In this document: positions 4,678-63,313 of the stretch, one piece after another | Position numbering within the stretch: position 1 is the first letter of the stretch | Layout: each line of letters begins with the position of its first letter | Sequence record: MW735835.1 | Source of the DNA: Pseudomonas phage pPa_SNUABM_DT01 | DNA length: 64,000 nt | Reading direction: 5' to 3' (one strand) | Notes under the pieces: generated by a model | The model's database searches: none | Told to the model about the DNA's origin: nothing | The model's input: only the letters and a program-made list of their open reading frames with translations | Position numbers and translations under genes: made by a program

Positions 4678-4686
4678 TCGTCAACA

Positions 4687-4723
4687 TACAGGGAGGAGCC
4701 TAGGCTCCTCCCTGTATGCCGTG
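4687..4723 (+). terminator. GC-rich hairpin (acagggaggagcctaggctcctccctgt) followed by a TATGCCGTGT box
   Basis: Perfect 12-bp stem with a cctagg loop directly after the stop at 4677. The 3' side carries the conserved TATGCCGTGT motif rather than a U-tract, so it may be a processing or terminator element. Confidence 0.5.
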
Positions 4724-6092: not shown

Positions 6093-6110
6093 GCTGATCG
6101 CCCCGGCCCG

Positions 6111-6139
6111 CATCCAGCCGCTCTCGTAGCGGCTGGATG
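6111..6139 (+). terminator. hairpin catccagccgctctcgtagcggctggatg followed by tttatgcc
   Basis: Perfect 12-bp inverted repeat 19 nt after the stop at 6092, with a short T-stretch and a TATGCC-like flank. Confidence 0.5.
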
Positions 6140-6182
6140 TTTATGCCCTTAATTTTTTCTCTGATACCAAGGACGCACCACC

Positions 6183-7670: not shown

Positions 7671-7676
7671 ATACTG

Positions 7677-7710
7677 GGGAGAGCGCTTGCTCTCCCCGCT
7701 ATGCCGTGTC
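7677..7710 (+). terminator. hairpin ggggagagcgcttgctctcccc followed by a TATGCCGTGT box
   Basis: Starts 7 nt after the stop at 7670. Same architecture as 4687-4723. Confidence 0.5.
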
Positions 7711-9434: not shown

Positions 9435-9479
9435 ATACAGGGCGCCCATTGGGCGCCCTGTATCCGTTTCTTTTTTTTG
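9435..9479. terminator. bidirectional intrinsic terminator (atacagggcgcccattgggcgccctgtat plus T8 on +)
   Basis: Perfect 13-bp stem followed by a T-run on the + strand. It lies between the convergent genes 7782..9419 (+) and 9493..10359 (-). Confidence 0.7.
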
Positions 9480-20121: not shown

Positions 20122-20126
20122 TGCGG

Positions 20127-20160
20127 CATACAGGGCAGGCCACTTGGCCTGCCCTGTATG
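20127..20160. terminator. GC hairpin catacagggcaggccacttggcctgccctgtatg between convergent genes
   Basis: Perfect 14-bp stem. It lies between the terL stop (20121) and the stop of the minus gene 20164. No U-tract. Confidence 0.5.
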
Positions 20161-20163
20161 TTG

Positions 20164-23055: not shown

Positions 23056-23159
23056 ACATATCCCCTTGATCCTTACCACAGCCCCAAACCGGCTGTGGCG
23101 CTCCCCCTTAGCCGTTTAACGGCCGGTGTGGTAAGGATCTTTTTTTGCGGACATCCATC

Positions 23160-23573
23160 ATGACACCCCTTGACGTTGCAATCCTTGATTTCAAGGAACT
23201 GGTGAAAGTACACCAAGAGCGGACGAACAATCCGAACCCTCCACCTTTGACCCATGAACTGAAGCGGAAGATCGGTGATACCTTGGACCGTATCGCTGAG
23301 TTTGCTGTGGGGTATCAGAAAGACAGCTTGGTCGGATTACCGATCCTGGAGACTGTGGAATCCATGCGCTGTGTCAGACGGGATATCTACGAGCGACTCC
23401 AGGAAGAAGGTATCGAGTACTCCCATGCTGTCTCCAATGGAACCATCGCATGTGTTCTGACGGACAAGGAGACCGGAGCATCCATGCACGTCTCACTGAG
23501 TGATCGATTCGATCATGAGTTGCTCCATCGACTGTCCTGGGAACGGAAGATGGAGTGGGTAAGTCTCCACTGA
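23160..23573 (+). CDS. hypothetical protein (137 aa)
   Basis: ATG (MTPLDVAIL...) inside track ORF 23145..23573. Confidence 0.5.
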   Translation: MTPLDVAILDFKELVKVHQERTNNPNPPPLTHELKRKIGDTLDRIAEFAVGYQKDSLVGLPILETVESMRCVRRDIYERLQEEGIEYSHAVSNGTIACVLTDKETGASMHVSLSDRFDHELLHRLSWERKMEWVSLH

Positions 23574-23588
23574 CAGACATAGAGCCTA

Positions 23589-23625
23589 GGGATCTCCCTA
23601 GGCTCTTTTCTTTTGAATGAAGGGG
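23589..23625 (+). terminator. intrinsic terminator (agagcctagggatctccctaggctct plus ttttctttt)
   Basis: Perfect stem with a T-run, 16 nt after the stop. Confidence 0.7.
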
Positions 23626-23973
23626 GTCTGTATAGTATGCAAGTCTTGCTCACTTACTCGGGAAGGAAAGAGAAGGGGGTAAGACTAATGACGAACGAAG
23701 TGAGGAATTAGTCTGGGGGATGAGATAGGAAGGGTATAGTCTGCCGTGTTGGTGGCTATCTGGAGGGAGAGGTTACTCGACCGGAGGAGAGACAACACAC
23801 GAGCCCTTCTAGTGAGGCGAAGCCTCACCTTATATAGATTTTGGGATGACGACCCAAGTGATATGGCAATTTTCGTAGAGAAAAACTTTTAGACCTCCGC
23901 CCCAGTCAGCGCAAGCTGACGTTTTTATTTTTGATGTCTGGATACTGTATAGCTTCGGCAATGGAGAAAACAC

Positions 23974-25260: not shown

Positions 25261-25263
25261 CAT

Positions 25264-25297
25264 AGCGGAGGGCCTAGGCCCTCCGCTTATGCCGCCT
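25264..25297 (+). terminator. hairpin agcggagggcctaggccctccgct followed by a TATGCCGCC box
   Basis: Same hairpin-plus-TATGCC architecture as 4687 and 7677, followed at 25317 by the promoter box. Confidence 0.5.
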
Positions 25298-25316
25298 CAC
25301 CGAATTCTATTCGAAT

Positions 25317-25344
25317 ATTTTTCAGCAATACATAGTCACAGTGA
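25317..25344 (+). promoter_or_regulatory. promoter-like box tttttcagcaATACATaGTcACAGTGAgc (class A variant)
   Basis: Matches the 7720 box at 24 of 28 positions. Located 49 nt upstream of the ATG at 25393. Confidence 0.5.
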
Positions 25345-25392
25345 GCATGGATAAACCTGCTCGACAATTACCTGTTCTTAGGAGAACAAACA

Positions 25393-25761
25393 ATGCAACA
25401 CGCCAAAATGATGGACATCGCTCGTGCCGTTGTAGCCAATGGCTTCAAAGTCGTGGACGATCACAGCCCGAATGGGAGCCTGGAATCCCTAGCGGCAGTG
25501 GGCTATCACTACCGTGGCGAGCGTATGCACGTTGTTGCCCTGTACGAGAACACCCCGTACTTCAGCATCAACGAAGTGTACATCGACGAAGAAACCGGCA
25601 AGCCTCATCTGAGCCGGACCTCTGTCGGTGGCGTCATCAAACCCCAAGGCGATCTGGAAGCTGGCATCGAGCAATACAACGAAAGCCAGAAAGCCTATCG
25701 CTCCAACAATCCTGCGTACATCGGCGAAGTGTTCCGCGCCGAAGAAGGAGAAGCAGCATGA
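25393..25761 (+). CDS. hypothetical protein (122 aa)
   Basis: SD ggagaacaaacaATG, with normal composition. Confidence 0.6.
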   Translation: MQHAKMMDIARAVVANGFKVVDDHSPNGSLESLAAVGYHYRGERMHVVALYENTPYFSINEVYIDEETGKPHLSRTSVGGVIKPQGDLEAGIEQYNESQKAYRSNNPAYIGEVFRAEEGEAA

Positions 25762-26747: not shown

Positions 26748-27575
26748 TTACCGGCGCGAGCCTACCACGTAACGGAGGAGTCGTCGGTGCTGGTCTTTGT
26801 TCGCCATCACGCCGGACTTTCTCCACTTCTCAGTGAAGAACTCCTTGTACATCTGGTTGGCATCGGCGTAGGTGTCGATGATCTCCCGGATGCGGCCCAG
26901 GGACGCACCACCACGGATCGCACCTTCATCCAATGGGATGACGGTCTTGTTGAAGATCCAGGCTTTGCAGGCCAGCGTCACCATCTCGCTGAACTTGTCC
27001 GCCCACAAGCCCGAGATGTTCGCGAGGTTCGGGTCGTGAGTGACCAAGCAGCGCAGGAAACTGATGCCCGGGACACGGTTCATGTTGGTGACCATCACGG
27101 TGTTGTCCGCCACCAGCGTGCAGTACGCGCTCTGCACTTGCGTCCAGGCAGCGTTGGATTGCATCACTCCAGCGGCTGCTTCCAGTACCATCGACCGGTC
27201 CTCGGAGATCACCCCCACGTTCCCCAACGTGTGTCCTTGGCCATAGCTGAGGCCATAGACCTCGGTGATGCTCCGGCCCTGGGTGAGTTCTTTTGGGATG
27301 CGGTAGATGTAGGTCCAGTTATCGACCCGTTCGCCGGGCACGTTGGTCAGCGGCAGGAAGACTTCGACACCCGAACAGAGGTTCATGTCTACCAGCACGC
27401 GGCCTTCGATGATCTGGCGGCGGATCACGGTATCGTTGCTGATACCGGTGGAGTAATCGCGAATCAGACCTTGTTTGGTCGGATCGTAACGAGTCGGCGA
27501 GAAGGCGTAACGAAGCACTTCTTGCGGAATCTCGAAGTTTCTGAGCCTGTCAAGGGCTACGGTGATAAGGTCCAT
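26748..27575 (-). CDS. hypothetical protein (about 275 aa)
   Basis: Minus ORF with protein-like composition; the + ORF 26787..27668 is antisense-like. Start chosen at MDLITVALDRL. Confidence 0.55.
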   Translation of the reverse strand: MDLITVALDRLRNFEIPQEVLRYAFSPTRYDPTKQGLIRDYSTGISNDTVIRRQIIEGRVLVDMNLCSGVEVFLPLTNVPGERVDNWTYIYRIPKELTQGRSITEVYGLSYGQGHTLGNVGVISEDRSMVLEAAAGVMQSNAAWTQVQSAYCTLVADNTVMVTNMNRVPGISFLRCLVTHDPNLANISGLWADKFSEMVTLACKAWIFNKTVIPLDEGAIRGGASLGRIREIIDTYADANQMYKEFFTEKWRKSGVMANKDQHRRLLRYVVGSRR

Positions 27576-27606
27576 TGTGAGTGCCTCAATGAAGACGAAG
27601 GTACAC

Positions 27607-28359
27607 ATGATGGGTGTCAACATAAGGAGCGCACTCGTGCAACAAGAAACGGCCCACCTCTGGGATAGCTTGCAGTACCGTCAGGAAATGCATGATCGAC
27701 TGTTCCACAGCGACATCTACAACCTGGCCAAGCCCCACCGCCTGACCCACTTGGTTCTGCATCAGGCCAAGTACGTGTCGCGCTACCACATGGCCCTCAA
27801 GGATGCCGATGCGTTCCGTAAGACCTACTCGGACAAGTCGGAAACCACCACGTTGCCCGAGGGCCACATCACTGAAGCCGTGAGGCGACTGACCATCGAC
27901 GGGGTGATCATCTGCCTGTCCACGTTGAACGTCTGCAACCGCAAGATGTCCGACCTGCTCGACAAGTACATGATCTGGGATCTGAACGAATGTGCTGATC
28001 AACTGATCGTCTCCATGGGCAAGATGGCCAAGACTGTGGAAGACATCGACCACATGGCGCAGATCCGTCCGCTGGGCACCATGGTCGAACTGACAAAGGT
28101 CATGACCCAGGCGTACATCAACCTGTGGACCTTCTCCAGTGACCGAGATGGCGTTAATCATTTGCTAGAAGCATGCTACCATCGGCTGAACGAGGTAGAG
28201 CGGAAGCACATCTTCGCCGATCAGCTCCAGACCGAGATGCTCGTCAGTATCAACGAACATCGCAAGCGCACCGGCCATCCGACCGTGACCCCATCTGCCG
28301 CCTACATGGACATCGCTGTATGGCGCAGTGGTAATGGCGGCGGTGCCGTCTCCGGCTAA
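27607..28359 (+). CDS. hypothetical protein (about 250 aa)
   Basis: SD gaaggtacacATGATG. Real composition; the minus ORF 27586..28161 was rejected. Confidence 0.55.
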   Translation: MMGVNIRSALVQQETAHLWDSLQYRQEMHDRLFHSDIYNLAKPHRLTHLVLHQAKYVSRYHMALKDADAFRKTYSDKSETTTLPEGHITEAVRRLTIDGVIICLSTLNVCNRKMSDLLDKYMIWDLNECADQLIVSMGKMAKTVEDIDHMAQIRPLGTMVELTKVMTQAYINLWTFSSDRDGVNHLLEACYHRLNEVERKHIFADQLQTEMLVSINEHRKRTGHPTVTPSAAYMDIAVWRSGNGGGAVSG

Positions 28360-28374
28360 TCGAACTTTCCACAA

Positions 28375-28398
28375 TGATACATTATCTTTGTGCACATA
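28375..28398 (+). promoter_or_regulatory. promoter-like box tgATACATTATCtttGTGcacatac (class B)
   Basis: Located 30 nt upstream of the SD/ATG of the tubulin gene and shares ATACATTATC with 5500, 40837, 50001 and 54912. Confidence 0.5.
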
Positions 28399-28427
28399 CT
28401 TCAACCACCTCCGTGAGGAAGCAACAC

Positions 28428-29420
28428 ATGAATCAGAACAACGGCCTCTCTACCCGCCCCGTCGGCAAGATCCGCATCTACGGTTGCGGTGGTGGTGGCG
28501 TGAACATCGGTAAGGAATACCTGGATCAGGGTCACAGTGGCGACATCGCCAACATCGAGGCCTGCTTCATCGATACCTCCGACGCCAACCTGGAAGACCG
28601 CCTGATCGACAAGACCTGGCTGTTCGACGACCTCGATGGCTCCGGCGCCGTTCGCCAGACCAACGTGGCCGCCATCCAGAAAGCAATTCCCGACATCATC
28701 CGCAAGTTCCCGGCGGCCGACGTCAACATCGTGATCTTCACCCTGGCCGGCGGCACCGGCTCGGTCGCAGGTCCGCTGCTACTGCAACAACTGCTGGCCG
28801 ACGGCCACATGGCGGTCGCCATCGTCATCGGTGCCAAGCACTCCGGCCGTAACGCCGAGAACACTCTGGCCACCGTCAAGACCCTGGACGCCATCCGTCA
28901 CGTCACCGGCAAGCCGGTCGTCATGCACCTGGGCATCAACTCCACCAACGCGCCGACCGATGACGGCGTGGACCGTGAAGCTCATCTGATGATCACCTCG
29001 CTGGCCATGCTGTGCTCCCGCCGTAACCATCGCCTGGACACCGCCGACCTGCGTTCGCTGTTCGACTTCACCAAGTCCACCAGCGCCCCGGCTCAGATGT
29101 GCCGTCTGCACGTGACCGACAACACCGAAGCCTTCAACAAGGTGATGAAGACCGGCCCGCTGGCCGCTGCGTACCTGCTGCGCCAGTCCACCGACCCGGT
29201 ACCGGATCTGTTCGTGCCTTACAGCACCTACGGCACCATGCCGGCCATCGCCCAGGCCAGTGGCAGCCTGTTCTTCGGCATCGAGAGCGGTTCGATGGTT
29301 GAACTGCACAAGCTGGTCGCTGACCTGCAAAAAGAAGTCGAAACCCAGAAGCGGGCGGCTACCCAAGCCACCAACTTCGTCGATGCTCCGCCGGCCGGCG
29401 GCAGCGTCCTGGTCTTCTGA
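28428..29420 (+). CDS. phuZ: tubulin/FtsZ-like GTPase, PhuZ-type phage spindle protein
   Basis: T1 loop IYGCGGGGVNIG (GGGGxxxG) and the tubulin signature TLAGGTGSVAGP (GGTGSG). SD gaggaagcaacacATG. At 330 aa its size fits PhuZ. Confidence 0.8.
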   Translation: MNQNNGLSTRPVGKIRIYGCGGGGVNIGKEYLDQGHSGDIANIEACFIDTSDANLEDRLIDKTWLFDDLDGSGAVRQTNVAAIQKAIPDIIRKFPAADVNIVIFTLAGGTGSVAGPLLLQQLLADGHMAVAIVIGAKHSGRNAENTLATVKTLDAIRHVTGKPVVMHLGINSTNAPTDDGVDREAHLMITSLAMLCSRRNHRLDTADLRSLFDFTKSTSAPAQMCRLHVTDNTEAFNKVMKTGPLAAAYLLRQSTDPVPDLFVPYSTYGTMPAIAQASGSLFFGIESGSMVELHKLVADLQKEVETQKRAATQATNFVDAPPAGGSVLVF

Positions 29421-29427
29421 CCCACAC

Positions 29428-29470
29428 GGACTGTGGAGCTAACCCCTCCACAGTCCTTATGCCGTGTTAC
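29428..29470 (+). terminator. hairpin ggactgtggagctaacccctccacagtcc followed by a TATGCCGTGTT box
   Basis: Begins 8 nt after the phuZ stop. Same TATGCC flank as other hairpins. Confidence 0.5.
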
Positions 29471-29487
29471 CGAGACAAGGAGATTCC

Positions 29488-29964
29488 ATGTCATCCACCC
29501 ATCCTGGCTACATCAGCGCTGCTCGCCTCGAAGACCTGCGCGACCTGTGCCAACCATCGCAGTTCAATACCACCGAAGAAGCCCACAGCGCCCTGCATAA
29601 CGGCATTATCGGTCTGCTCAAGAATACCGACAAACTCTGGGTCGATGCCCGGCGTTTGATCCCCGGTGACATGTTCATGAACGACGACGCCAGCGGTCGC
29701 GTGTTCATCGTCAAGGATCGTTTCTTCCATTACACCCACCATACCCGGCTGTCTCAGCGTATGGTGTTCGGTGAACCCCAAACCCCGCACGGGACCAACG
29801 TCCTGCAAGGCGAGTACCTCGAACTCTCCCTCAAGGACACTGTGCCCGGCGCATCGTTCTACGCATGCGTTCACACTGGTCTGATTTACAGCGCTGTCGC
29901 AGACAAAGACCCCTTCCCGGATTACAAGATCGGGAAGTCCGTTTACCTCATCACTAAGCCCTAA
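29488..29964 (+). CDS. hypothetical protein (158 aa)
   Basis: Strong SD aaggagattccATG. Track ORF 29464 trimmed to this start. Confidence 0.6.
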   Translation: MSSTHPGYISAARLEDLRDLCQPSQFNTTEEAHSALHNGIIGLLKNTDKLWVDARRLIPGDMFMNDDASGRVFIVKDRFFHYTHHTRLSQRMVFGEPQTPHGTNVLQGEYLELSLKDTVPGASFYACVHTGLIYSAVADKDPFPDYKIGKSVYLITKP

Positions 29965-29976
29965 CAGGAGACCATC

Positions 29977-30687
29977 ATGTCCCAGAAGAAAGAACTGATC
30001 TACGGTGCCGATGGCAAACCCATGTATGAACTGGTCGACACCACCCGTGCCAGTCAGTGCATGAAATGGGTCCCGGTCTACGGCGGCAAGCCGCTGCTCC
30101 GTGTGGGCTTCCTCTCCCCGGTACCGAAGCGTCACCTGACCGACGGCGAGTACATCCACGACAGTCGCCCGATCGCTTGGCCGGTCTACCATCCGTACTG
30201 GATCGTCCGCATGTCTGACGACGCCAACATGCTGATGGCCTACGTCGAGAAGCTGGAAGACGTCAAGGTCTACTGGCCGGAAGCGACCGAGATCACCGTC
30301 TTCGAAGAAGGCGCTGAGCGTTACGGCTTCAACGCCAACTTCCCCGAGCCTACCTGGCTGAAGGAAGTCTGGGCGCCGGAGTTCACCGTGGCTCCGCGTA
30401 AGATCGGCGTGTACCGTATCTTCGACGCCGACAACGATGTCCTGAACATCATCGGCTACAGCGACGACGTGGACTACGCCGTGCAGCTGAACAACCACAA
30501 GCTGGAGTACGGCAACCACGAGGACCAGGAGTTCCAGGCTGAATACCCGGGCTGGCAATACCTGACCATCGAGTTCTACCCGACGCCGACGCTGGAAGCG
30601 GCCAAGGCCAAGTACGACGAGCTGTACAAGTTCCACCACCAGGCCGGCAACGAAGAAGGCAACCTGCCGACCAATCTGTTGATCTGA
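29977..30687 (+). CDS. hypothetical protein (236 aa)
   Basis: SD aggagaccatcATG. The antisense ORF 29491..30639 was rejected. Confidence 0.65.
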   Translation: MSQKKELIYGADGKPMYELVDTTRASQCMKWVPVYGGKPLLRVGFLSPVPKRHLTDGEYIHDSRPIAWPVYHPYWIVRMSDDANMLMAYVEKLEDVKVYWPEATEITVFEEGAERYGFNANFPEPTWLKEVWAPEFTVAPRKIGVYRIFDADNDVLNIIGYSDDVDYAVQLNNHKLEYGNHEDQEFQAEYPGWQYLTIEFYPTPTLEAAKAKYDELYKFHHQAGNEEGNLPTNLLI

Positions 30688-30692
30688 CCGGC

Positions 30693-30986
30693 ATGAAACC
30701 GTTCACGTCAGATTTGTTGAGCGGTTTCGATGAGACCACCGAGCAGGCCCAGCTTGCTCGGTTCTCCAGGAAGCGACTGGTTCAGACGAGCCCGCCGTAT
30801 CCTTGTGTACTCGAAGCGCTTGACGCAGCCGAGGCAAATAACCACATGGACTTCTGCGATTACAGTTACGTTGATTCCCGTAATCGCGTGGTAGCCATCT
30901 TTGAATACAACGATGTGACGCCTGACAAGCCCGTTGGTAAAGGGCAAGAACGCGTCCTCATCCCGCACTACGAGAGAAAGCCATGA
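30693..30986 (+). CDS. hypothetical protein (97 aa)
   Basis: Tightly packed ORF in the same orientation. Confidence 0.5.
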   Translation: MKPFTSDLLSGFDETTEQAQLARFSRKRLVQTSPPYPCVLEALDAAEANNHMDFCDYSYVDSRNRVVAIFEYNDVTPDKPVGKGQERVLIPHYERKP

Positions 30987-31168
30987 TCAACCCGTATGGG
31001 AAACTGAACGATGAAGTCCTGGACCTTGCAGTCAAGATGAAGATCGAGCCCGACTTCTCCAACGTACGCCAACGGGTACGCAACGCATCGCTGGCCATGA
31101 AGGTCAAATACAAGCGTGCGATTATCGCCAACTCCATCGACAACCTGCTTGACGGCAACGATTTCTGA
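30983..31168 (+). CDS. hypothetical small protein (61 aa)
   Basis: ATGA overlap with the upstream gene. Confidence 0.45.
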   Translation: MINPYGKLNDEVLDLAVKMKIEPDFSNVRQRVRNASLAMKVKYKRAIIANSIDNLLDGNDF

Positions 31169-31382: not shown

Positions 31383-31390
31383 TCCATCAA

Positions 31391-31431
31391 AGAGAGCAGA
31401 GGAATTCCTCTGCTCTCTGGCTTTATTTTTT
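31391..31431 (+). terminator. intrinsic terminator (agagagcagaggaattcctctgctctct plus tttatttttt)
   Basis: Perfect 11-bp stem followed by a T-run. Confidence 0.7.
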
Positions 31432-31486
31432 CAGACGACCAACCGGTTATTATATACTGGGGTGACCTATTCTGTAGGGGGAGGAT

Positions 31487-31828
31487 ATGAATATCGAATT
31501 TAAGGGCCCTACGGCGCTCATCTTCGACGTTTCAGCCCTTACCGGTACCCTAGATATAGGTGGAATGATTCCGCCTCTTGCATGGCAGTTTGTGATCGAG
31601 CAAGACCTGATCGAAAAAGTCGGATTGACGATGGTGTCCACAACACCTCACTGTCCTTCGTTGGAGAATCAGTACAGCTTGATTCGCAAGTTGCAAGACC
31701 GGTACGAGCAGACGTTCGTTGATCAGCTTGATCAGCACTTGACAGCGCACCTGCGCTTGTTCGGGTTATCAATCGAGATGACATTGGATTACTTGGTCGT
31801 CTTTAAAGAGAACACACTTAGGAGTTAG
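31487..31828 (+). CDS. hypothetical protein (113 aa), first gene of the lower-GC island
   Basis: SD gggggaggatATG. Local GC is noticeably lower than the flanks. Confidence 0.5.
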   Translation: MNIEFKGPTALIFDVSALTGTLDIGGMIPPLAWQFVIEQDLIEKVGLTMVSTTPHCPSLENQYSLIRKLQDRYEQTFVDQLDQHLTAHLRLFGLSIEMTLDYLVVFKENTLRS

Positions 31829-31830
31829 CC

Positions 31831-32894: not shown

Positions 32895-33306
32895 GCCTTA
32901 TCACGTCGACCGTGTCACGGTGGGTCCAGCCCCTGACACGGTACGTTTCGTGTTGGTGGAAAGCCCGATGGAACACGAGACCTTTAAGGAGTATTACCGT
33001 CAACTGGGACGGATAGGGATCATGATCCCCATGGTCGAGATGATTAACTGCGCTCTCAGGCGCAGGAGTGTCCTCGACACGCGTGCTGGCCGTTCATGGA
33101 TCAACAGAACATCAGAGGAGCGCGTCGCGCTCTTCAAAGCAGAGATAGCTAACATCAACCTAGCCATGCAGTTAGGGTTCAACGGACTCTTGCGCAATGC
33201 CTGTGGGGATTGCCTTGTCATGGAGTACTGTGACGGCTTGATGGTTATAGAGGTGAGAAGAGTTGTCGACTGGAATAAGCTCAATCGCTTTGAAGTTACC
33301 GTATGA
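32818..33306 (+). CDS. hypothetical protein (162 aa)
   Basis: Overlaps the previous ORF by 77 nt in another frame; the start may be internal. Confidence 0.4.
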   Translation: MPNSRVTSFLKGYGALTKSLYPQAYKPYHVDRVTVGPAPDTVRFVLVESPMEHETFKEYYRQLGRIGIMIPMVEMINCALRRRSVLDTRAGRSWINRTSEERVALFKAEIANINLAMQLGFNGLLRNACGDCLVMEYCDGLMVIEVRRVVDWNKLNRFEVTV

Positions 33307-33518
33307 CGGGGCGTTCAATATGCTCGGCAGGAAGCTGGCCGATCAAATTGGCGCCTCGGCATTACTTTATGCCGCAATAGCGTATTTTGTCTTCGATGAG
33401 GCGTTCTACCTTGAGGACCTCTCGGAGAATTTTCCCGAGTTGCATGATGATTTGCTGTGGTGGTGTGATGACATCTATTCATCGTTTTACGCCACCTTCA
33501 AGAACCTTAGGACCTTTT

Positions 33519-34064
33519 ATGAAACTACCGATGATCCTGCCCAGGAACGCGCTCATTCGCCAATGTGCGGAAAGCGGTGGCGTCGGGCACAAAGACCGTT
33601 CCAGCTTCTCAGGGTCGTCTATTACGAACCCGATGAAGATGTCTACATTACGGCCTCGCGAGACCCGAGTGATCATCACCTTGGAAGCATCTGGCGAATT
33701 TCTGGGCAACGTCCTGAAAGTGTGCTCGGCAACAGGCATGAGCATCGAGGAATTGTTTTCCTACCTTTCCAACGCTCTCGACGCCTACCGCGCCGATCAA
33801 TTCCCACCGGCCCTGTTGATGAATGACCGCTTGCCACGAGCTGAGCAGGTCGACGTCCAGGCCACGCTTGGCAACCTGATCGAACAGTACACCGCAGAGA
33901 CGGAACAACTGGTGAAATTGATCGGTGTGCCACGCCTCGTGGAGGTACATGGAGATGATGATATTGCCGTTGTCGAAGTCAGCAAACCAGAACCTGAGCC
34001 CCTGCCAAGTCCCGATCGCATTGTGCATCCCCGTCGAAGGAGACTGGTTAAGCACGATCGATAG
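33519..34064 (+). CDS. hypothetical protein (C-terminal part of a possibly frameshifted gene)
   Basis: Frame B of the overlapping ORFs 33263..33826 and 33387..34064. Frame B has the GC-rich third positions downstream of about 33520, whereas frame A looks coding only upstream of that point. Confidence 0.4.
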   Translation: MKLPMILPRNALIRQCAESGGVGHKDRSSFSGSSITNPMKMSTLRPRETRVIITLEASGEFLGNVLKVCSATGMSIEELFSYLSNALDAYRADQFPPALLMNDRLPRAEQVDVQATLGNLIEQYTAETEQLVKLIGVPRLVEVHGDDDIAVVEVSKPEPEPLPSPDRIVHPRRRRLVKHDR

Positions 34065-34155
34065 AGAACTGCTCGTTGTCTGCGTTTCCTCGGCCCTAGC
34101 GGGTGTAATTAAGAACACCATTGCCGCTGAATATGGGCAAGCACTCAGTTATTGG

Positions 34156-34356
34156 ATGAGGAAGTCTACGAATCGTCGGCATTCCATGGCACGCTTGATG
34201 GTGCAGTTGGACGAAGCTTTCGAGCTGGTGCTGGCAGTGTTTGTAGGCATTGCAGATCAACTAAGTAGATACCGGTTCATCGAATCGCTAGTCACCGAGT
34301 TGGTGGCGTACGATGCGGCTGACGGATCATTGGTAGTGAGAATTTCCGATGGCTGA
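34156..34356 (+). CDS. hypothetical small protein (start uncertain)
   Basis: Tail of track ORF 33925..34356. First ATG after the upstream stop (34064); a non-ATG start further upstream is possible. Confidence 0.25.
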   Translation: MRKSTNRRHSMARLMVQLDEAFELVLAVFVGIADQLSRYRFIESLVTELVAYDAADGSLVVRISDG

Positions 34357-39109: not shown

Positions 39110-39118
39110 TGAGGCAGC

Positions 39119-39149
39119 ATAGAGAGCGGCCAGTGGCCGCTCTCTATGC
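39119..39149. terminator. hairpin catagagagcggccagtggccgctctctatg between convergent genes
   Basis: Perfect 13-bp stem between the + stop at 39109 and the minus stop at 39151. Has CATAGAG and TATGCC flanks. Confidence 0.5.
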
Positions 39150-40830: not shown

Positions 40831-40857
40831 ACGGGGATACATTATCAACGTGAATAT
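40831..40857 (+). promoter_or_regulatory. promoter-like box acggggATACATTATCAACGTGaATATcgg (class B)
   Basis: 21 of 22 identity with 5500-5521. Located 68 nt upstream of the putative shell gene within a 295-bp leader region. Confidence 0.55.
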
Positions 40858-40924: not shown

Positions 40925-42832
40925 ATGGCTGTAAACAACGACGAAACCCTCGACACCGGCGCCGGCAGCGAGCAACCCCGTCGCAACGAACCGCGCGGCG
41001 AACCGCGTGGTGAGCGTCGTGAGACCAACATGAACGCCGGTCTGCTGGACATCAACCGCCTCCTGGGCGCCCCGATGAGCCGCCGTATCTCCGGCGAAGT
41101 TCTGGTCAATGCCGTCAAGGCCATCAAGCACTGGTTCGCTCCCGAGCGTCAAGTAGCCGGCGGCGGTCTGATCGATCTGACCAAGATCCAGGTTCTGGGT
41201 CTGGAAGCCTCCGAGCACAACGTCTCGATCTCCAGCGCCATCCTGGCCTACCCGGTCGAAGAAAACGGCACCGTCAAGGTGCTGGTGCACTCCATCGCTC
41301 TGGCTCAGAGCCTGACCGACGACGTCGGTGTGCGTACCGCCGAGATCAACCACCGCAGCTACACCCTGCCGGTGATCCCCTCGGACTACATCACCGAGAG
41401 CTACCTGGCTCTGATCGACGAAATCGTCAAGAAGAACTTCGAGCAGTCCCGCAAGAACGTCGAAATCGTTCGTGCCGGCTGGCGTGTGGTTTCGCCGAAG
41501 GTCGACTTCAGCGAGCCGGAAAACACCGAAGTGCGTCAGGTCGTGTTCTTCGCGCAGGCTGCGCTGGCCGCCATCTACGGCGACCTGTACAACGAGAACC
41601 TGTACTTCTCGCTCGACTGGCTGACCAAGGCCTCCACCCTGGAGATCAACGTCGACCTGTCCGGCCGCGAAGTGTTCACCGCTGACGGCCTGCCGCGTCG
41701 TTCCGACCTGGCCGTGCAAGTCGCCGGTATCGTCCGCAAGGGCGACCAGAACATCCCGGTTCCGCTGGCCAACCTGGGCGGCTACGTCAACATCATGTAC
41801 ACCCCGCCGGCGCAAGAAGAGCGTTGGGCCCGCAACCAGCGCCGTGATCAGCCGTACTTCACTCCGGTGTACGTGATCAACCGCATGGACACCGGCACCA
41901 ACGGCATCACCCCGGAACTGCTCCTGCTGGCCATGGCCGGCGCCTCGGTCATCTCCAAGGACCAGGCCTGGGCGCAGGGCTTCCTGCCGGGCGACGTGCA
42001 GCGCGGTGAAGTGGACTACCGTGACGCCGGTCTGCTGAACATCCTCGGCCCGGATCAGGACAAGCAGCCTGTCGTGTTCGACAGCCGCTCGAGCCTGGAC
42101 ACCAACAAGTGGGCCCAGTACTTCTTCAGCCTGGTGGACGACAACCTGGCCTGGGCAATCGAGCTGGAAGAAGGCGGCGACAACAGCTGGATCACCAGCC
42201 TGCTGTCCGACGCTGCAACCGACGACAGCCCGAACAAGGACGCCATCCGCCGTCTGTACGACTACGCGGACCGTCTGACCAACGGCAACTTCACCCGTCG
42301 TGCCAAGGAGCTGGGCGTCGAAGTCCCGCTGCAAATGTCCGGTGCCCGTTACCTGACCGGTACCTGGATCGACGAGAACGGCAAGGAGCGCGACCTGCGC
42401 GACTGGGACCTGCTGCGCTGGATGGCTTCCAACCCGAGCGACGAGGGCGAATCCGCTCTGCGCTACCAGGACGTCATCGACCGCACTGACCTGGACGTGG
42501 AAATCCGCGTTTCCGAGCAGTTCGACCAACTGACCCAAGCCCTCGGCGCGAGCAACGTCAAGTTCGCCCGCTACGTGGACCTGGCCTTCATCAACCCGGC
42601 CTTCATCGAGGCCCTCGCCATGGCCGTTGCTGATTGCAAGATCAACATCGACCAGCGCTCTGCGCACTACACCTTCGGCAACCGTCGCCTGCGTGGTAAC
42701 ACCCGCATCCGCGACTTCGTCGGTGGTGACCTGACCCACGGCATGCTCTCGAGCCGCCGCATGGGCAACGACGGTCAGCGTGGTCTGCGTTCCGTAGTCG
42801 GCAACGGCTTCGGTTTCGGCAACACCTACTGA
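40925..42832 (+). CDS. chmA: putative chimallin (ChmA), major phage-nucleus shell protein
   Basis: 635 aa (about 70 kDa) with low-complexity N- and C-terminal extensions. Lies immediately upstream of the RNAP beta-prime N-terminal gene, as in phiKZ gp54/gp55. Strong SD aaggagtaacaccATG and its own promoter box. No motif-level confirmation is possible from sequence alone. Confidence 0.5.
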   Translation: MAVNNDETLDTGAGSEQPRRNEPRGEPRGERRETNMNAGLLDINRLLGAPMSRRISGEVLVNAVKAIKHWFAPERQVAGGGLIDLTKIQVLGLEASEHNVSISSAILAYPVEENGTVKVLVHSIALAQSLTDDVGVRTAEINHRSYTLPVIPSDYITESYLALIDEIVKKNFEQSRKNVEIVRAGWRVVSPKVDFSEPENTEVRQVVFFAQAALAAIYGDLYNENLYFSLDWLTKASTLEINVDLSGREVFTADGLPRRSDLAVQVAGIVRKGDQNIPVPLANLGGYVNIMYTPPAQEERWARNQRRDQPYFTPVYVINRMDTGTNGITPELLLLAMAGASVISKDQAWAQGFLPGDVQRGEVDYRDAGLLNILGPDQDKQPVVFDSRSSLDTNKWAQYFFSLVDDNLAWAIELEEGGDNSWITSLLSDAATDDSPNKDAIRRLYDYADRLTNGNFTRRAKELGVEVPLQMSGARYLTGTWIDENGKERDLRDWDLLRWMASNPSDEGESALRYQDVIDRTDLDVEIRVSEQFDQLTQALGASNVKFARYVDLAFINPAFIEALAMAVADCKINIDQRSAHYTFGNRRLRGNTRIRDFVGGDLTHGMLSSRRMGNDGQRGLRSVVGNGFGFGNTY

Positions 42833-54504: not shown

Positions 54505-54540
54505 TAGAGGAGAGGGGCGACCCCTCTCCTCTTTCTTTGC
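54505..54540. terminator. bidirectional intrinsic terminator (agaggagaggggcgacccctctcctct plus tttctttg)
   Basis: Perfect 12-bp stem between the convergent genes 53106..54491 (+) and 54541..54879 (-). Confidence 0.7.
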
Positions 54541-54963: not shown

Positions 54964-57189
54964 ATGACAAGTAACCAGTCTGTCCAGGAGCAACTGGCTC
55001 AGTACTATGCTCAGTCCGCCCGTAATCCGGTGGAACTGCATCCTGAGTTGATGTCGCTCTATGGGCTCAACCCGTTTATCCGGCACATCTCCGCATCCCG
55101 TGCGGCTATGTTCACCGGCAACCTGGCACAAATGGTGGTAATCAAGGAGCCCACCAGGAAGCACATCATGACCCTGATGGAGCGTCCGTTTGCCGATACG
55201 ACGTTCTCGATTGAATTCGAGGACAACGTGCAGATCCTTAAAATCATCCCGCGCTTCGGCCACACCGCCGGTGCCAACCGTATCCGGCATTCGCCGCAGA
55301 CGGCCATCATTTACGAGAACCAGCGCACCAACGAGATCGGGGTGACGATGCTGACGGACTACCACGTCACGCACCAGCACTTCGGCACCGAGTTCAAGCG
55401 CAATCGTGACGTGATGGACCTGATGCGCGAGAAGGCGTACTTCAAGGCTGGTACCAAGCTGGCCCACAGTCCGCTGATTGACCAGTATGGCAACTACATG
55501 TACGGCCGCGAGACGAACGTGCTCATGGCGTCTGACGTGGCAGGGACTGAGGACGGTGTGAAGGCCCGTCGGGGATACCTGGAGAAGTTGGCCCCCACAG
55601 GATTTGAGACTCGTGTCTTCGAATTCGGGCGTGAGTTCTTCCCGACCAACCAATCCACAGTCCCCGGCATCTATAAGGTCATGCCTGACCTGGGCGAGAA
55701 GGTAAGCAGCACTGGCTTGCTGGTAGCGCTGCGCCGGTATGACCCGATCAGTGGCGTGGCCAACATGACCACCGAGGCGCTGCAACAGCCGGACTACATC
55801 TTCGACCGGAAGCGGTTCGTCCAACACATCGATGCTGAAGTGGTGGACATCAAGGTCGAACGCAACACCTCGATCAACATCCCGCCGTTGCCGGTGGGCA
55901 TGGAAGATCAGCTGCTCAAGTACTACAACGCCGACACCGAGTTCTACAAGAAGATCGTGGACTTCTGGTGGGAAAAGCGTAAAGAAGCGCGCAAGCGTGG
56001 GTACGAAGAGCTGCCGATGGAGCCGGAGTTCAACCATCTGGTGTTCGAAGCCATCGGCCGGGTTGGTCCTGACCATCTGCGGTCGGACCATGGGTTCAAC
56101 CGGAAGGTCGATGAAGCCGTCTCGGGCGGTAAAGTCGACAAGGTCTACCGCGGCGTGAAGCTGGACGCATGGCGCGTGGAGATCACCTTCAAGTACCTGT
56201 CCATCCCGAACAAGGGCTATAAGATCACCGACATCAACGGCAACAAGTCCGTCGTGGTCGAGGTGGTCGATGACGAAGACATGCCGGTCGACGAGAACGG
56301 AATCGTCGCTGACATCGTCGTAGACCCGAACTCCCGTTGGAACCGGGTAACACCAGCATCCCCGATCGAAATGGTGATCTCGGGTGCCGGGCGTGACCTG
56401 GGCAAGCGCCTCCAGCATGCCTTCGGGTTCCCCATGAACGATCAGTTGAAGGAGGATGAAGTAAACGACGTCGTCTATTCTCCCGAGAACCGTGATCTCG
56501 TGGAGTATTGGTTCGACGAGCTGATGGAGTTCTACAAGGTAGTCGCTCCGTACCAGTACGACGACCTCTCGGACCCCGAGTACCACCGCTTCAACCCGGA
56601 GTACAAGCACACGCAAGTGGCCGCAGTCATGCTGGATCACCTGCTGGGCATCGACCTCACCATGCCGACCGATAACCCGGTCCACATGCCGGATGTCATC
56701 CGCGCCATTCAGGAGCGCTGGCCTCCGTTCATCACCCCTGTCCGCTTCCGCGGCCGGGACGGCAAGATGAAGGTGTCCCGTGAGCCGATGCTGATTGCTC
56801 CGTCCTACTACATCAACCTGGAGAAGACCGCAGAAGACTCGTGGATGGCTGCATCGTCCGCGAAGTGCAACGTGTTCGGTACCACTGCGCGTCTGTCCAA
56901 CAACGACAAGTACGACTCTCCCGGTCGTCAGTCGTCCATTCGTGTCGGTGAGTCCGAGATTCGCTCGGAGTCCGCTGTCTGTGGTGGTGAAGCCACTGCC
57001 GATCAGAAGGACGCCTCCAACAACCCGATTGCGCACAAGTTCGTGCTCCGTCGGCTGTTGACCCACCCGACCCCGACCAACATCGAGGAGGTTCTCGATC
57101 GGAAGGTGGTTCCGGTAGGCGGGCATAGACCGTTGGCCTACATGCGCAACATGTTCGAATGCTCGGGCAAACAACTCACCAACGAATAA
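54964..57189 (+). CDS. multisubunit RNA polymerase beta subunit, C-terminal half
   Basis: DINGNKSVVVEVVDDEDMPVDENGIVADIVVDPNSRWNRV aligns with bacterial beta [38 protein letters not shown]. Downstream RVGESEIRSE parallels the conserved RFGEMEVWALE region. SD aagggagtcaccgATG. The 1482-aa antisense ORF 54958..59406 was rejected. Confidence 0.7.
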   Translation: MTSNQSVQEQLAQYYAQSARNPVELHPELMSLYGLNPFIRHISASRAAMFTGNLAQMVVIKEPTRKHIMTLMERPFADTTFSIEFEDNVQILKIIPRFGHTAGANRIRHSPQTAIIYENQRTNEIGVTMLTDYHVTHQHFGTEFKRNRDVMDLMREKAYFKAGTKLAHSPLIDQYGNYMYGRETNVLMASDVAGTEDGVKARRGYLEKLAPTGFETRVFEFGREFFPTNQSTVPGIYKVMPDLGEKVSSTGLLVALRRYDPISGVANMTTEALQQPDYIFDRKRFVQHIDAEVVDIKVERNTSINIPPLPVGMEDQLLKYYNADTEFYKKIVDFWWEKRKEARKRGYEELPMEPEFNHLVFEAIGRVGPDHLRSDHGFNRKVDEAVSGGKVDKVYRGVKLDAWRVEITFKYLSIPNKGYKITDINGNKSVVVEVVDDEDMPVDENGIVADIVVDPNSRWNRVTPASPIEMVISGAGRDLGKRLQHAFGFPMNDQLKEDEVNDVVYSPENRDLVEYWFDELMEFYKVVAPYQYDDLSDPEYHRFNPEYKHTQVAAVMLDHLLGIDLTMPTDNPVHMPDVIRAIQERWPPFITPVRFRGRDGKMKVSREPMLIAPSYYINLEKTAEDSWMAASSAKCNVFGTTARLSNNDKYDSPGRQSSIRVGESEIRSESAVCGGEATADQKDASNNPIAHKFVLRRLLTHPTPTNIEEVLDRKVVPVGGHRPLAYMRNMFECSGKQLTNE

Positions 57190-57201
57190 GCGGAGTAAGC
57201 A

Positions 57202-59310: not shown

Positions 59311-59340
59311 GAGGGGCCTTCGGGCCCCTCTTTTATTTTG
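59311..59340 (+). terminator. intrinsic terminator (gaggggccttcgggcccctc plus ttttattttg)
   Basis: Perfect GC stem with a uucg loop and a T-run, 6 nt after the stop. Confidence 0.75.
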
Positions 59341-61304: not shown

Positions 61305-61307
61305 GTG

Positions 61308-61342
61308 GGAGGGCTTCGGCCCTCCTCTTATGCCGCGTGTCA
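61308..61342 (+). promoter_or_regulatory. hairpin gggagggcttcggccctcc followed by a TATGCCGCGTGT box
   Basis: Same hairpin plus TATGCC architecture. The box overlaps an ATG (61331) that opens the downstream frame. Confidence 0.4.
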
Positions 61343-63246: not shown

Positions 63247-63313
63247 GTAGGGACGGGAGAGCGATGCTCTCCCGTATGTCCGTCTCACCGTTCTATTCAA
63301 TGTGGAGGTTCGT

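Follow-up and report, generated by a model that had tools for sequence, protein, structure and literature searches.

A PhuZ-family tubulin gene in Pseudomonas phage pPa_SNUABM_DT01, with an early-promoter-like element and a conserved downstream hairpin

PhuZ is the tubulin by which nucleus-forming giant phages position their "phage nucleus." Its acidic C-terminal knuckle docks onto a basic H3-H5 patch of the neighboring subunit; knuckle and patch were reportedly first described by Kraemer et al. in 2012. For PhuZ of phage 201phi2-1 (gp59; PDB 3R4V, 3RB8, 3J5V), the knuckle is reported to be critical for assembly (PMC7950403), and residues D187 and D190 have a catalytic role (bioRxiv 10.1101/311498). 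PhuZ is not a core protein: about 66% of chimallin phages have it, and it is non-essential. Its roles differ by phage, with a three-stranded spindle on the one hand and a five-stranded filament in RAY on the other. Regarding expression, jumbo phages that encode RNA polymerases each have their own AT-rich motif of ∼10 nt near position -10 of early operons, and the core of phiKZ late promoters is T-3ATG+1 (PMC7598289). The -10, -20, and -30 regions are conserved in jumbo-phage early promoters (PMC11512511).

The DNA that we analyzed, a window of 64,000 nt, originates from Pseudomonas phage pPa_SNUABM_DT01 (MW735835.1), hereafter DT01. It contains a gene deposited as "hypothetical protein PA10_00128," a label that makes no mention of tubulin. 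In a protein database search, the 330-aa product was 100% identical to the deposited PA10_00128 over 100% of its length. The gene and its translation signal are as follows:

28428..29420, + strand: coding sequence of the PhuZ-family tubulin (PA10_00128), 330 aa plus stop, from profile, sequence, and structural comparisons
28415..28421, + strand: ribosome-binding site GAGGAAG, 6 nt before the ATG at 28428, read from the sequence

The original prediction had placed the ORF at 28375-29420. Its strand and its end at 29420 hold, and the start has to be moved from 28374/28375 to 28428 on account of the ribosome-binding site, the deposited protein, and the N-termini of homologues. The N-terminus from 28428 lines up with homologues of 324 to 347 aa, mostly 327 to 330 aa, and a similar version of the (A)GGA-rich ribosome-binding site is kept in relatives. 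We rejected a longer ORF of 348 aa starting at 28374, because its first 18 codons lie inside the promoter element described below and have no counterpart among homologues. The coding sequence has a GC3 of 0.83 and a codon-usage log-likelihood score of 182. A megablast search with positions 27500-30700 against a phage collection without the DT01 record gave no match, and neither Rfam nor tRNA scans had a hit anywhere in the window.

The call of a PhuZ-type tubulin was borne out by profile, sequence, and fold evidence. The protein matched Pfam Tubulin (PF00091) with 42.3 bits against a cutoff of 33 (E 1.3e-10), and a PHROG profile search identified phrog_4733, "tubulin PhuZ," at 5.4e-73 over aa 13-320. 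Among sequences of the PDB, PhuZ of Escherichia phage Goslar scored best (7.6e-29), followed by 201phi2-1 and phiKZ PhuZ (∼4e-24), whereas TubZ reached 1.6e-4 and FtsZ 7e-4 or worse. We then compared the AlphaFold model (pLDDT, 90.1; pTM, 0.89) with the PDB by Foldseek. The top five matches were all PhuZ structures (E 1e-28 to 2e-23; TM, 0.75 to 0.88), and the first match after them was TubZ, at 3.6e-12. An NCBIfam search of the protein returned solely a far sub-threshold FtsZ match (equivalog TIGR00065, 23.9 bits versus a cutoff of 295.2). By sequence and by fold, the protein is far closer to PhuZ of Goslar, 201phi2-1, and phiKZ than to TubZ. We conclude that gene 28428-29420 is an ordinary, formerly unlabeled PhuZ-family tubulin, an assignment that is strongly supported and that leaves the current understanding of phage tubulins unchanged.

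The elements of the protein that bear on GTP binding, catalysis, and assembly are encoded at these positions:

28482..28511, + strand: T1 or G-box GTP-binding loop GCGGGGVNIG (aa 19-28), from homologue conservation
28740..28775, + strand: T4 tubulin signature loop TLAGGTGSVAGP (aa 105-116), from homologue conservation
29034..29048, + strand: T7 loop and start of H8, LDTAD, from alignment to 201phi2-1 PhuZ
29292..29417, + strand: C-terminal helix H11 (aa 289-311) and flexible tail (aa 312-330, ending in NFVDAPPAGGSVLVF), from AlphaFold secondary structure and pLDDT

Both tubulin GTP-binding signatures named in the original prediction are thus present, as the T1 and T4 loops. Across 45 homologues, G21, G22, and N26 of T1 are invariant, as are G108, G109, and G111 of T4, and G24 is nearly so; N145 is likewise invariant across homologues. 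D204 and D207 align onto the catalytic D187 and D190 of 201phi2-1 PhuZ, and neither varies among 54 sequences. We checked for an absence of the tubulin fold or of GTPase residues and found the Tubulin profile above its cutoff and the residues intact. We rejected the reading of the protein as an inactive pseudo-tubulin, given the conservation of every catalytic residue. In the AlphaFold model, helix H6 appears to be absent, with a loop (aa 171-178) joining S6 (164-170) to H7 (179-195), and the tail after H11 is modeled with low confidence.

DT01 PhuZ shares with its 201phi2-1 counterpart a tubulin/FtsZ fold without H6, the long H11, a tail, the T1 and T4 loops, and the catalytic pair. Both come from chimallin phages of Pseudomonas and are of similar size (315 aa in 201phi2-1, 330 aa in DT01), with a Foldseek TM of 0.81 to 0.87 at an identity of about 26 to 28%. 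They differ in an N-terminal extension of ∼12 aa in DT01, in the residue corresponding to K36 of 201phi2-1 PhuZ, which is Ala in DT01, and in the promoter motif. Goslar PhuZ (PDB 9PM9), the best solved relative in sequence, is also the best fold match (E 1.1e-28; TM, 0.85), and phiKZ gp39 (TubZ/PhuZ; PDB 3ZBP, 3ZBQ) aligns with a TM of 0.84 to 0.88. These two proteins have the domain order and the hydrophobic C-terminal end of DT01 PhuZ at 25 to 29% identity but carry insertions after S3 that are missing in DT01. The closest relatives from cultured phages are the tubulins of Xanthomonas phages RTH11 and LucasX and of Ralstonia phage RP31 (31 to 36% identity), whose loci show the same synteny of a divergent DUF7484 gene, a small gene, and the tubulin gene. 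In a published tree, LucasX groups with DT01 (PMC9009655). The tails of these three tubulins are more acidic than that of DT01, and the ATACATKAT promoter core of DT01 is absent from their loci.

Upstream of the gene, the original prediction had noted an AT-rich promoter box, which proved to be part of a longer element:

28358..28392, + strand: extended early-promoter-like element aaTCGAAcTTTCCaCAatg-ATACATTAT-ctttGTG, with the core ATACATTAT at 28377-28385, from motif recurrence and conservation in relatives

The box is real: it lies in a region of 43% GC (28360-28427; about 57% for the window), recurs in nine strong copies, and is kept in relatives. The element overlaps the preceding gene at its stop codon and contains the ATG at 28374. 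The core motif ATACATKAT has 8 copies in the window, on the + strand only, versus 0.29 expected, and a weight-matrix scan with the ∼35-nt element retrieved 9 sites of at least 43.6 bits over a background of at most 5 bits, the PhuZ site scoring 44.7 bits. All nine sites are intergenic, on the + strand, and 46 to 113 nt before the start codon of a + strand gene; copies precede the chimallin gene (40837) and the non-virion RNA polymerase genes gp160/161 (54910). Eight related metagenomic loci, whose PhuZ proteins are only 58 to 80% identical, retain the box ahead of PhuZ. Two of these loci, L016 and L017, keep it though they do not have the upstream gene, and there it is the sole conserved element of the divergent intergenic region. 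The consensus of the element is TCGAAnTTTCnnCAnnn-ATACATKAT-nnnnGTG. Like the DT01 element, the early promoters that the virion RNA polymerase uses in phiKZ and 201phi2-1 have an AT-rich core of ∼10 nt and conserved -20/-30 regions, stand upstream of early operons, and are phage specific, the ATACATKAT core of DT01 contrasting with TATATTAC-like cores in phiKZ intergenic regions. The box is most likely an early promoter of the virion RNA polymerase.

Downstream of the gene, we found a structured element followed by a conserved tail:

29428..29456, + strand: conserved hairpin (11-bp stem, 7-nt loop), from folding energy and covariation
29457..29470, + strand: conserved 3' tail of the hairpin, TTATGCCGTGTTAC, which contains TATG, from motif recurrence and relatives

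The hairpin that had been predicted at 29428 is a genuine structure (-23 kcal/mol; z-score, -3.7) and its conservation includes compensatory changes: across 9 loci, pairing is kept in 99% of the cells, and both sides have changed in 4 of the 11 pairs. Its tail belongs to a family with the consensus (T)TATGCCGYNTCACC. TATGCCGY has 10 copies versus 2.5 expected, mostly beside intergenic hairpins, and the tail is kept in relatives. A scan of 27000-31000 for canonical terminators gave 0 sites, the hairpin continuing into UUAUGCCGUGUU with no U-tract, whereas a canonical hairpin plus U-tract terminator follows phiKZ gp39. A sigma-70 scan of the same interval gave 1 promoter-like site versus 1.3 expected, which is not above chance. 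The lack of sigma-70 and terminator signals above chance fits a phage that is independent of host RNA polymerase signals. The covariation of the stem is directly observed, and the hairpin may act on the PhuZ transcript as a terminator. No hairpin was found separating the upstream gene (27637-28359) from PhuZ, so PhuZ may also sit on longer read-through transcripts. Of the claim that PhuZ is monocistronic and bounded by box and hairpin, the box and the hairpin themselves stand, and expression as a single gene can only be presumed.

We considered whether the box is not a promoter, binding instead a phage regulator or a replication or packaging factor, and the hairpin with its TATGCCG tail not a terminator, acting instead as an RNA-stability or processing element or as part of the next gene's promoter. 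The hairpin without a U-tract would suit such roles, as would the TATG in its tail, which is the phiKZ late-promoter core, and phiKZ hairpins are also followed by TTATG. However, the box always points toward the gene that it precedes, at 46 to 113 nt and in intergenic DNA, it stands before chimallin and the non-virion RNA polymerase, homologues of known early genes, as published for early promoters of such phages (PMC7598289), and L016 and L017 conserve nothing else in this divergent intergenic region. Hairpins are found at gene ends, including between convergent genes, which is the usual position of terminators. We therefore regard these alternative roles as unlikely.

We infer the filament function by analogy with characterized PhuZ proteins, and DT01 PhuZ very probably works and is expressed along the following lines. 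The injected virion RNA polymerase would read the AT-rich early promoter at 28358-92, with a start probably near 28390-28395, and the transcript would end at, or be stabilized by, the conserved hairpin at 29428-56, whose TATG-containing tail may restart transcription of downstream genes. The protein would bind GTP via its T1 and T4 loops and polymerize head to tail, D204 and D207 in T7 of one subunit completing the GTPase site of the next, while H11, the long helix, would act with the C-terminal tail as a clamp on the neighboring subunit. The dynamic filaments would position or rotate the phage nucleus and bring capsids to it. Since PhuZ roles vary between phages, centring specifically is not guaranteed for DT01.

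The acidic C-terminal knuckle, proposed as a check on the assignment, is largely absent or degenerate in DT01. Its tail, FVDAPPAGGSVLVF, has 1 acidic residue, an Asp, within the last 16 aa, versus 6 in 201phi2-1 PhuZ (IIDADDNVDEDGMVV) and 4 in phiKZ gp39, the family median being 3; uncultivated relatives of DT01 mostly keep 2 to 5. Across the family, the net charge of the tail ranges from -6 to +3, and its only constant is the terminal hydrophobic G-[LVI]-[LVI]-[FLW], VLVF in DT01. The neutral tail is shared with the two closest relatives, P0002 and P0003. With the knuckle cut to one Asp, the tail-to-body contact may differ from that of 201phi2-1. In a charge-covariation test, positions 74 and 81 in T3/H3 are basic in clades with acidic tails and Ala in DT01, which we take as a hint only because the test is confounded by phylogeny. 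The low acidity of this tail and the breadth of tail charges in the family offer a modest, useful caution against taking the knuckle as a defining feature of PhuZ.

A stronger version of this argument holds that the protein is a true PhuZ whose filament architecture or tail contact departs from the 201phi2-1/phiKZ paradigm because a neutral Pro/Gly-rich tail replaced the acidic knuckle, so that its role could shift toward rotation or capsid trafficking over centring, or weaken. The tail composition and the Ala residues at 74 and 81 would agree with this, as would the variation of PhuZ architecture among phages, exemplified by RAY. Nevertheless, the charge correlation is phylogenetically confounded, helix H11 and the hydrophobic terminus are retained along with the length of the tail, no catalytic residue is lost, and we judge such a departure decidedly improbable. 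A rather doubtful, though somewhat less remote, proposal combines the protein and transcription signals: the knuckle would have been lost from DT01 and from the two uncultivated phages closest to it, filaments would be held by the neutral Pro/Gly-rich tail and the hydrophobic terminus, the PhuZ cassette would form an early transcription unit of its own, and the TATGCCG hairpin tail would double as a late-type TATG restart promoter for downstream genes. If so, the electrostatic clamp between knuckle and basic patch, a supposed hallmark of PhuZ, would be dispensable and evolutionarily labile.

The original prediction also placed the PhuZ gene next to a candidate for the nuclear shell gene and held that PhuZ defines the lifestyle of the phage. 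Neither point held up. The shell gene lies 11.5 kb downstream:

40925..42832, + strand: gene of chimallin, the nuclear shell protein (phrog_4795, 2e-63; Pfam PF25677, 1.9e-33), with the same promoter core at 40837-40845

PhuZ, being non-core and non-essential, does not define the lifestyle, which is defined by chimallin together with two multisubunit RNA polymerases. RNA polymerase subunit genes lie at 42925 and 54964 in the window, which also encodes a phiKZ-type DNA polymerase, tail sheath, and terminase, and virion and non-virion polymerase sets have been reported for this phage (PMC8541153). Judged from its gene content, DT01 is a jumbo phage of the chimallin-encoding, nucleus-forming type, and the presence of both PhuZ and chimallin places it among the nucleus-forming Chimalliviridae, a point missing from the paper that described the phage. 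The identification of PA10_00128 as PhuZ corrects the record of a phage published as a therapeutic candidate. A TubZ-type DNA-segregation motor (type III partition, with a TubR adaptor and a centromere) in place of a nucleus-positioning spindle is extremely improbable: it could draw on a weak Pfam TubZ_C_2 match (PF22334, E 8e-5), on TubZ structures being the next-best fold matches behind PhuZ, and on the first naming of the phiKZ protein as TubZ (PMC3678025), but the TubZ_C_2 match is under the gathering cutoff (23.4 bits versus 27), PhuZ matches ∼20 orders of magnitude better than TubZ, the flanking genes have no Pfam or NCBIfam match and hence no TubR-like winged-helix gene was detected among them, and the chimallin-encoding genome belongs to a lytic phage.

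Uncultivated DT01-like jumbo phages from compost and other metagenomes (P0002-P0033, L010-L017) encode PhuZ proteins 51 to 80% identical to that of DT01, with the same gene order from terminase to DNA polymerase and the same promoter box and TATGCCG-tailed hairpin around PhuZ. The promoter consensus and the hairpin family with its TATGCCGYNTCACC tail provide a testable set of transcription signals for this poorly studied, compost-abundant clade. A weak Pfam match to Acb2/Tad1 in the gene after the DNA polymerase of one relative (L012) was not reproduced in the corresponding ORFs of the window. DT01 differs from these uncultivated relatives by an extra gene of 158 aa (29488-29964), located between PhuZ and a conserved gene of 236 aa.

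We examined the 330-amino-acid product of the gene at 28428-29420, which shows 100% identity across its entire length with the protein deposited as PA10_00128 in the 265,520-bp DT01 genome under the GenBank product name "hypothetical protein." The original prediction of a PhuZ-type tubulin cited two tubulin motifs, GCGGGGVNIG (residues 19 to 28) and TLAGGTGSVAGP (residues 105 to 116), and we confirmed that they correspond to the T1 (G-box) loop and the T4 (tubulin signature) loop, respectively. The protein scored 42.3 bits against Pfam Tubulin (cutoff, 33) and matched PHROG 4733, "tubulin PhuZ," at 5.4e-73 with near-complete coverage. In a PDB sequence search, the best matches were Goslar PhuZ (7.6e-29) and then 201phi2-1 PhuZ and phiKZ gp39 (~4e-24), with TubZ and FtsZ at 1e-4 or worse; the FtsZ equivalog model was not reached (23.9 bits versus a cutoff of 295). 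Modelled by AlphaFold from 45 homologues (pLDDT 90.1, pTM 0.89), the protein contained no helix between S6 and H7 and therefore lacked H6, as in PhuZ, and it showed a long C-terminal helix at residues 289 to 311 followed by a flexible tail. The five best Foldseek matches in the PDB were all PhuZ structures (TM 0.75 to 0.88, E values of 1e-28 to 2e-23), and the next was TubZ (3.6e-12). D204 and D207, which correspond to D187 and D190 of 201phi2-1 PhuZ, aspartates with a catalytic role (bioRxiv 10.1101/311498), were both invariant in a 54-sequence alignment; G21, G22, N26, G108, G109, G111, and N145 were also invariant, and G24 nearly so. Since the fold match is accompanied by conserved nucleotide-binding and catalytic residues, neither the tubulin fold nor the GTPase residues are missing, and the PhuZ-type assignment is strongly backed by the Pfam, PHROG, and PDB matches, the fold, and the invariant residues.

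DT01 PhuZ is a new member, unlabelled until now, of a well-known family. Its closest cultured relatives are in the Xanthomonas phages RTH11 and LucasX (35 to 36% identity) and the Ralstonia phage RP31 (31%), in which, as in DT01, the tubulin gene is arranged with a small gene and a divergent DUF7484 gene; the PhuZ proteins of Goslar, phiKZ, and 201phi2-1 are 25 to 29% identical. PhuZ proteins with 51 to 80% identity are encoded, in the same locus structure, by a large clade of uncultivated phages found mostly in compost metagenomes; transduction of genomic islands has been reported for one DT01-like phage from compost. The paper describing DT01 reported virion and non-virion multisubunit RNA polymerases but mentions no tubulin, PhuZ, shell, or nucleus, and the phage was not recognised there as nucleus-forming (PMC8541153).

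The first ATG of the open reading frame, at 28374, gives 348 amino acids, and the original prediction listed the stretch 28375-29420. The true start is instead 28428, since it is preceded at 6 nt by a ribosome-binding site (GAGGAAG), the homologues' N termini (MSQGLSTRPVG) align with MNQNNGLSTRPVG of DT01 PhuZ, gene calls on four metagenomic contigs with an identical protein use the same start, and the ATG at 28374 falls inside a regulatory element also found upstream of eight other genes. The homologues are 324 to 347 residues long, mostly 327 to 330.

We then considered the C-terminal tail, which the original prediction singled out for a check and which in 201phi2-1 PhuZ forms an acidic knuckle that docks on a basic patch of the neighbouring subunit. 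The 201phi2-1 protein ends in IIDADDNVDEDGMVV, with six acidic residues, whereas DT01 PhuZ ends in FVDAPPAGGSVLVF, with only one, D319, aligned to D303. Because of this single acidic residue, we do not regard the knuckle, taken as a defining feature of PhuZ, as present in DT01, which lowers confidence in a 201phi2-1-like tail contact and leaves that in family membership unaffected. The non-acidic tail is the sole mildly unusual feature of DT01 PhuZ. Beyond DT01, this neutral, Pro/Gly-rich tail is shared by P0002 and P0003 alone, its two closest relatives (80% and 77% identity), and net tail charge ranges from -6 to +3 across the family, the constant part being a terminal hydrophobic G-[LVI]-[LVI]-[FLW]. 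Some uncultivated homologues (P0037 and P0038) carry poly-lysine tails (KKKKKGPVLD), of charge opposite to that of the 201phi2-1 knuckle. Columns that track tail acidity by charge include T3/H3 positions 74 and 81, which are Lys in acidic-tail clades and Ala in DT01; this pattern is what co-evolution of the knuckle with the basic patch would produce, but it is confounded by phylogeny.

PhuZ is preceded by a 68-nt spacer that has a GC content of 43%, versus ~57% for the window, and contains the core ATACATTAT at 28377-28385, an instance of the motif ATACATKAT. This motif occurs eight times in the window (0.29 expected), always on the + strand and 46 to 113 nt upstream of a + strand gene start. 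Aligned sites define a longer element of ~35 nt, TCGAAnTTTCnnCAnnn-ATACATKAT-nnnnGTG, and a weight-matrix scan of the window located the following sites:

4754, 5500, 7731, 22378, 25328, 28377, 40837, 49999, and 54910, + strand, nine strong sites (43.6 to 54.3 bits)
62501 and 62612, two weaker sites (one at 23.9 and one at 16.5 bits)

All remaining positions on both strands scored at most 5.1 bits. The strong site at 25328, the ninth, falls between genes as well (intergenic region 25261-25392) and is ~65 nt from the gene that starts at 25393. Every copy is intergenic and points the same way as the gene that follows it, and these following genes include chimallin (40925) and those of the non-virion RNA polymerase beta-C and beta'-C subunits (54964-59304); by gene count, we infer that gp160 and gp161 of the DT01 paper (beta-C and beta'-C) are the genes at 54964 and 57202. 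In eight metagenomic loci with 58 to 80% identical PhuZ, the box was retained with its spacing to the ATG unchanged, and the core was exact in seven, with one mismatch in L010. Two of the loci (L016 and L017) lack the 240-aa gene, so that PhuZ directly follows the divergent DUF7484 gene, and yet they retain the box. The recurrence in the window and the conservation in these loci bear out the prediction that the box is PhuZ's own promoter. Each jumbo phage encoding RNA polymerases has its own conserved ~10-nt AT-rich motif, which is centred near -10 of its early operons and which the virion RNA polymerase reads (PMC7598289), and the -20 and -30 regions are conserved too (PMC11512511). The PhuZ promoter is most likely of the early class, and we infer this class and timing together with a start site at ~28390-28395; the element probably represents the consensus of the early promoters used by the DT01 virion RNA polymerase. 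The DT01 regulatory elements fit classes known for such phages.

The hairpin predicted at 29428 was found at 29428-29456, with an 11-bp stem, a 7-nt loop, and a folding energy of -23 kcal/mol (z-score, -3.7); none of 200 shuffles folded as well. Across nine loci, 99% of cells were paired, with changes on both sides in 4 of 11 pairs, and only 38 to 55% were paired in registers slid by 1 to 3 columns. This retention of pairing despite two-sided changes, lower in the slid registers, shows that the structure is under selection. The hairpin is no canonical intrinsic terminator, since its stem is followed by UUAUGCCGUGUU and a terminator scan of 27000-31000 gave no hit. At least 11 hairpins between genes of the window, including convergent ones, make up the family to which it belongs; they carry the tail (T)TATGCCGYNTCACC in place of a U-tract:

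4685-4718, 6110-6140, 7675-7698, 25264-25287, 29428-29456, 61307-61326, and 63253-63275, tailed hairpins
9435-9463, 20122-20163, and 54506-54532, - strand, tailed hairpins
39117-39149, both strands, tailed hairpin

A second class does have U-tracts (e.g., at 59311, 62433, 63562, 23581, and 26638). Hairpins of phiKZ are likewise followed by TTATG, and the late promoter of phiKZ, which the non-virion RNA polymerase reads, has TATG as its core (T-3ATG+1; PMC7598289). Thus, the tailed hairpins in the window may couple a terminator with a restart signal, and that of PhuZ may be a terminator, such a terminator-plus-restart module, or an RNA-stability element. Since no hairpin separates the upstream gene from PhuZ, longer transcripts may also cover PhuZ, and its description as monocistronic, plausible for the early transcript, is tentative.

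The immediate neighbours of PhuZ are as follows:

26748-27575, - strand, divergent DUF7484 / phrog_3179 gene
27637-28359, 240-aa gene upstream of PhuZ, no family match
29488-29964, 158-aa gene directly 3' of PhuZ, no family match
29977-30687, 236-aa gene, no family match

The shell gene had been placed next to PhuZ; chimallin instead lies 11.5 kb downstream, at 40925-42832 (phrog_4795, 2e-63; Pfam PF25677, 1.9e-33). Since the window also encodes RNA polymerase subunits, a phiKZ-type DNA polymerase, a tail sheath, and a terminase, the element is a chimallivirus. It is chimallin and the core genome that define this lifestyle, and not PhuZ as had originally been proposed, because PhuZ is described in the literature as non-essential and non-core, present in ~66% of chimallin phages and missing from one whole clade.

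A scan of the whole window found no tRNA or Rfam families. Most DT01-like relatives lack the 158-aa gene at this position and have the conserved 236-aa gene directly after PhuZ, and L015 has two other small genes in its place; 29488-29964 looks like a variable insertion slot 3' of the PhuZ hairpin. The synteny of a divergently transcribed DUF7484 gene just upstream of tubulin spans L006, L009, L011, and L013 to L017, reaching from DT01-like to Xanthomonas (RTH11) and Ralstonia (RP31) jumbo phages. Finally, a codon-usage gene caller left gaps at 23056-23973, 31383-31830, and 32895-34348; on the identical metagenomic contig, L001, genes have been called at ~23160-23573 (137 aa) and at 31487-31828 (113 aa).
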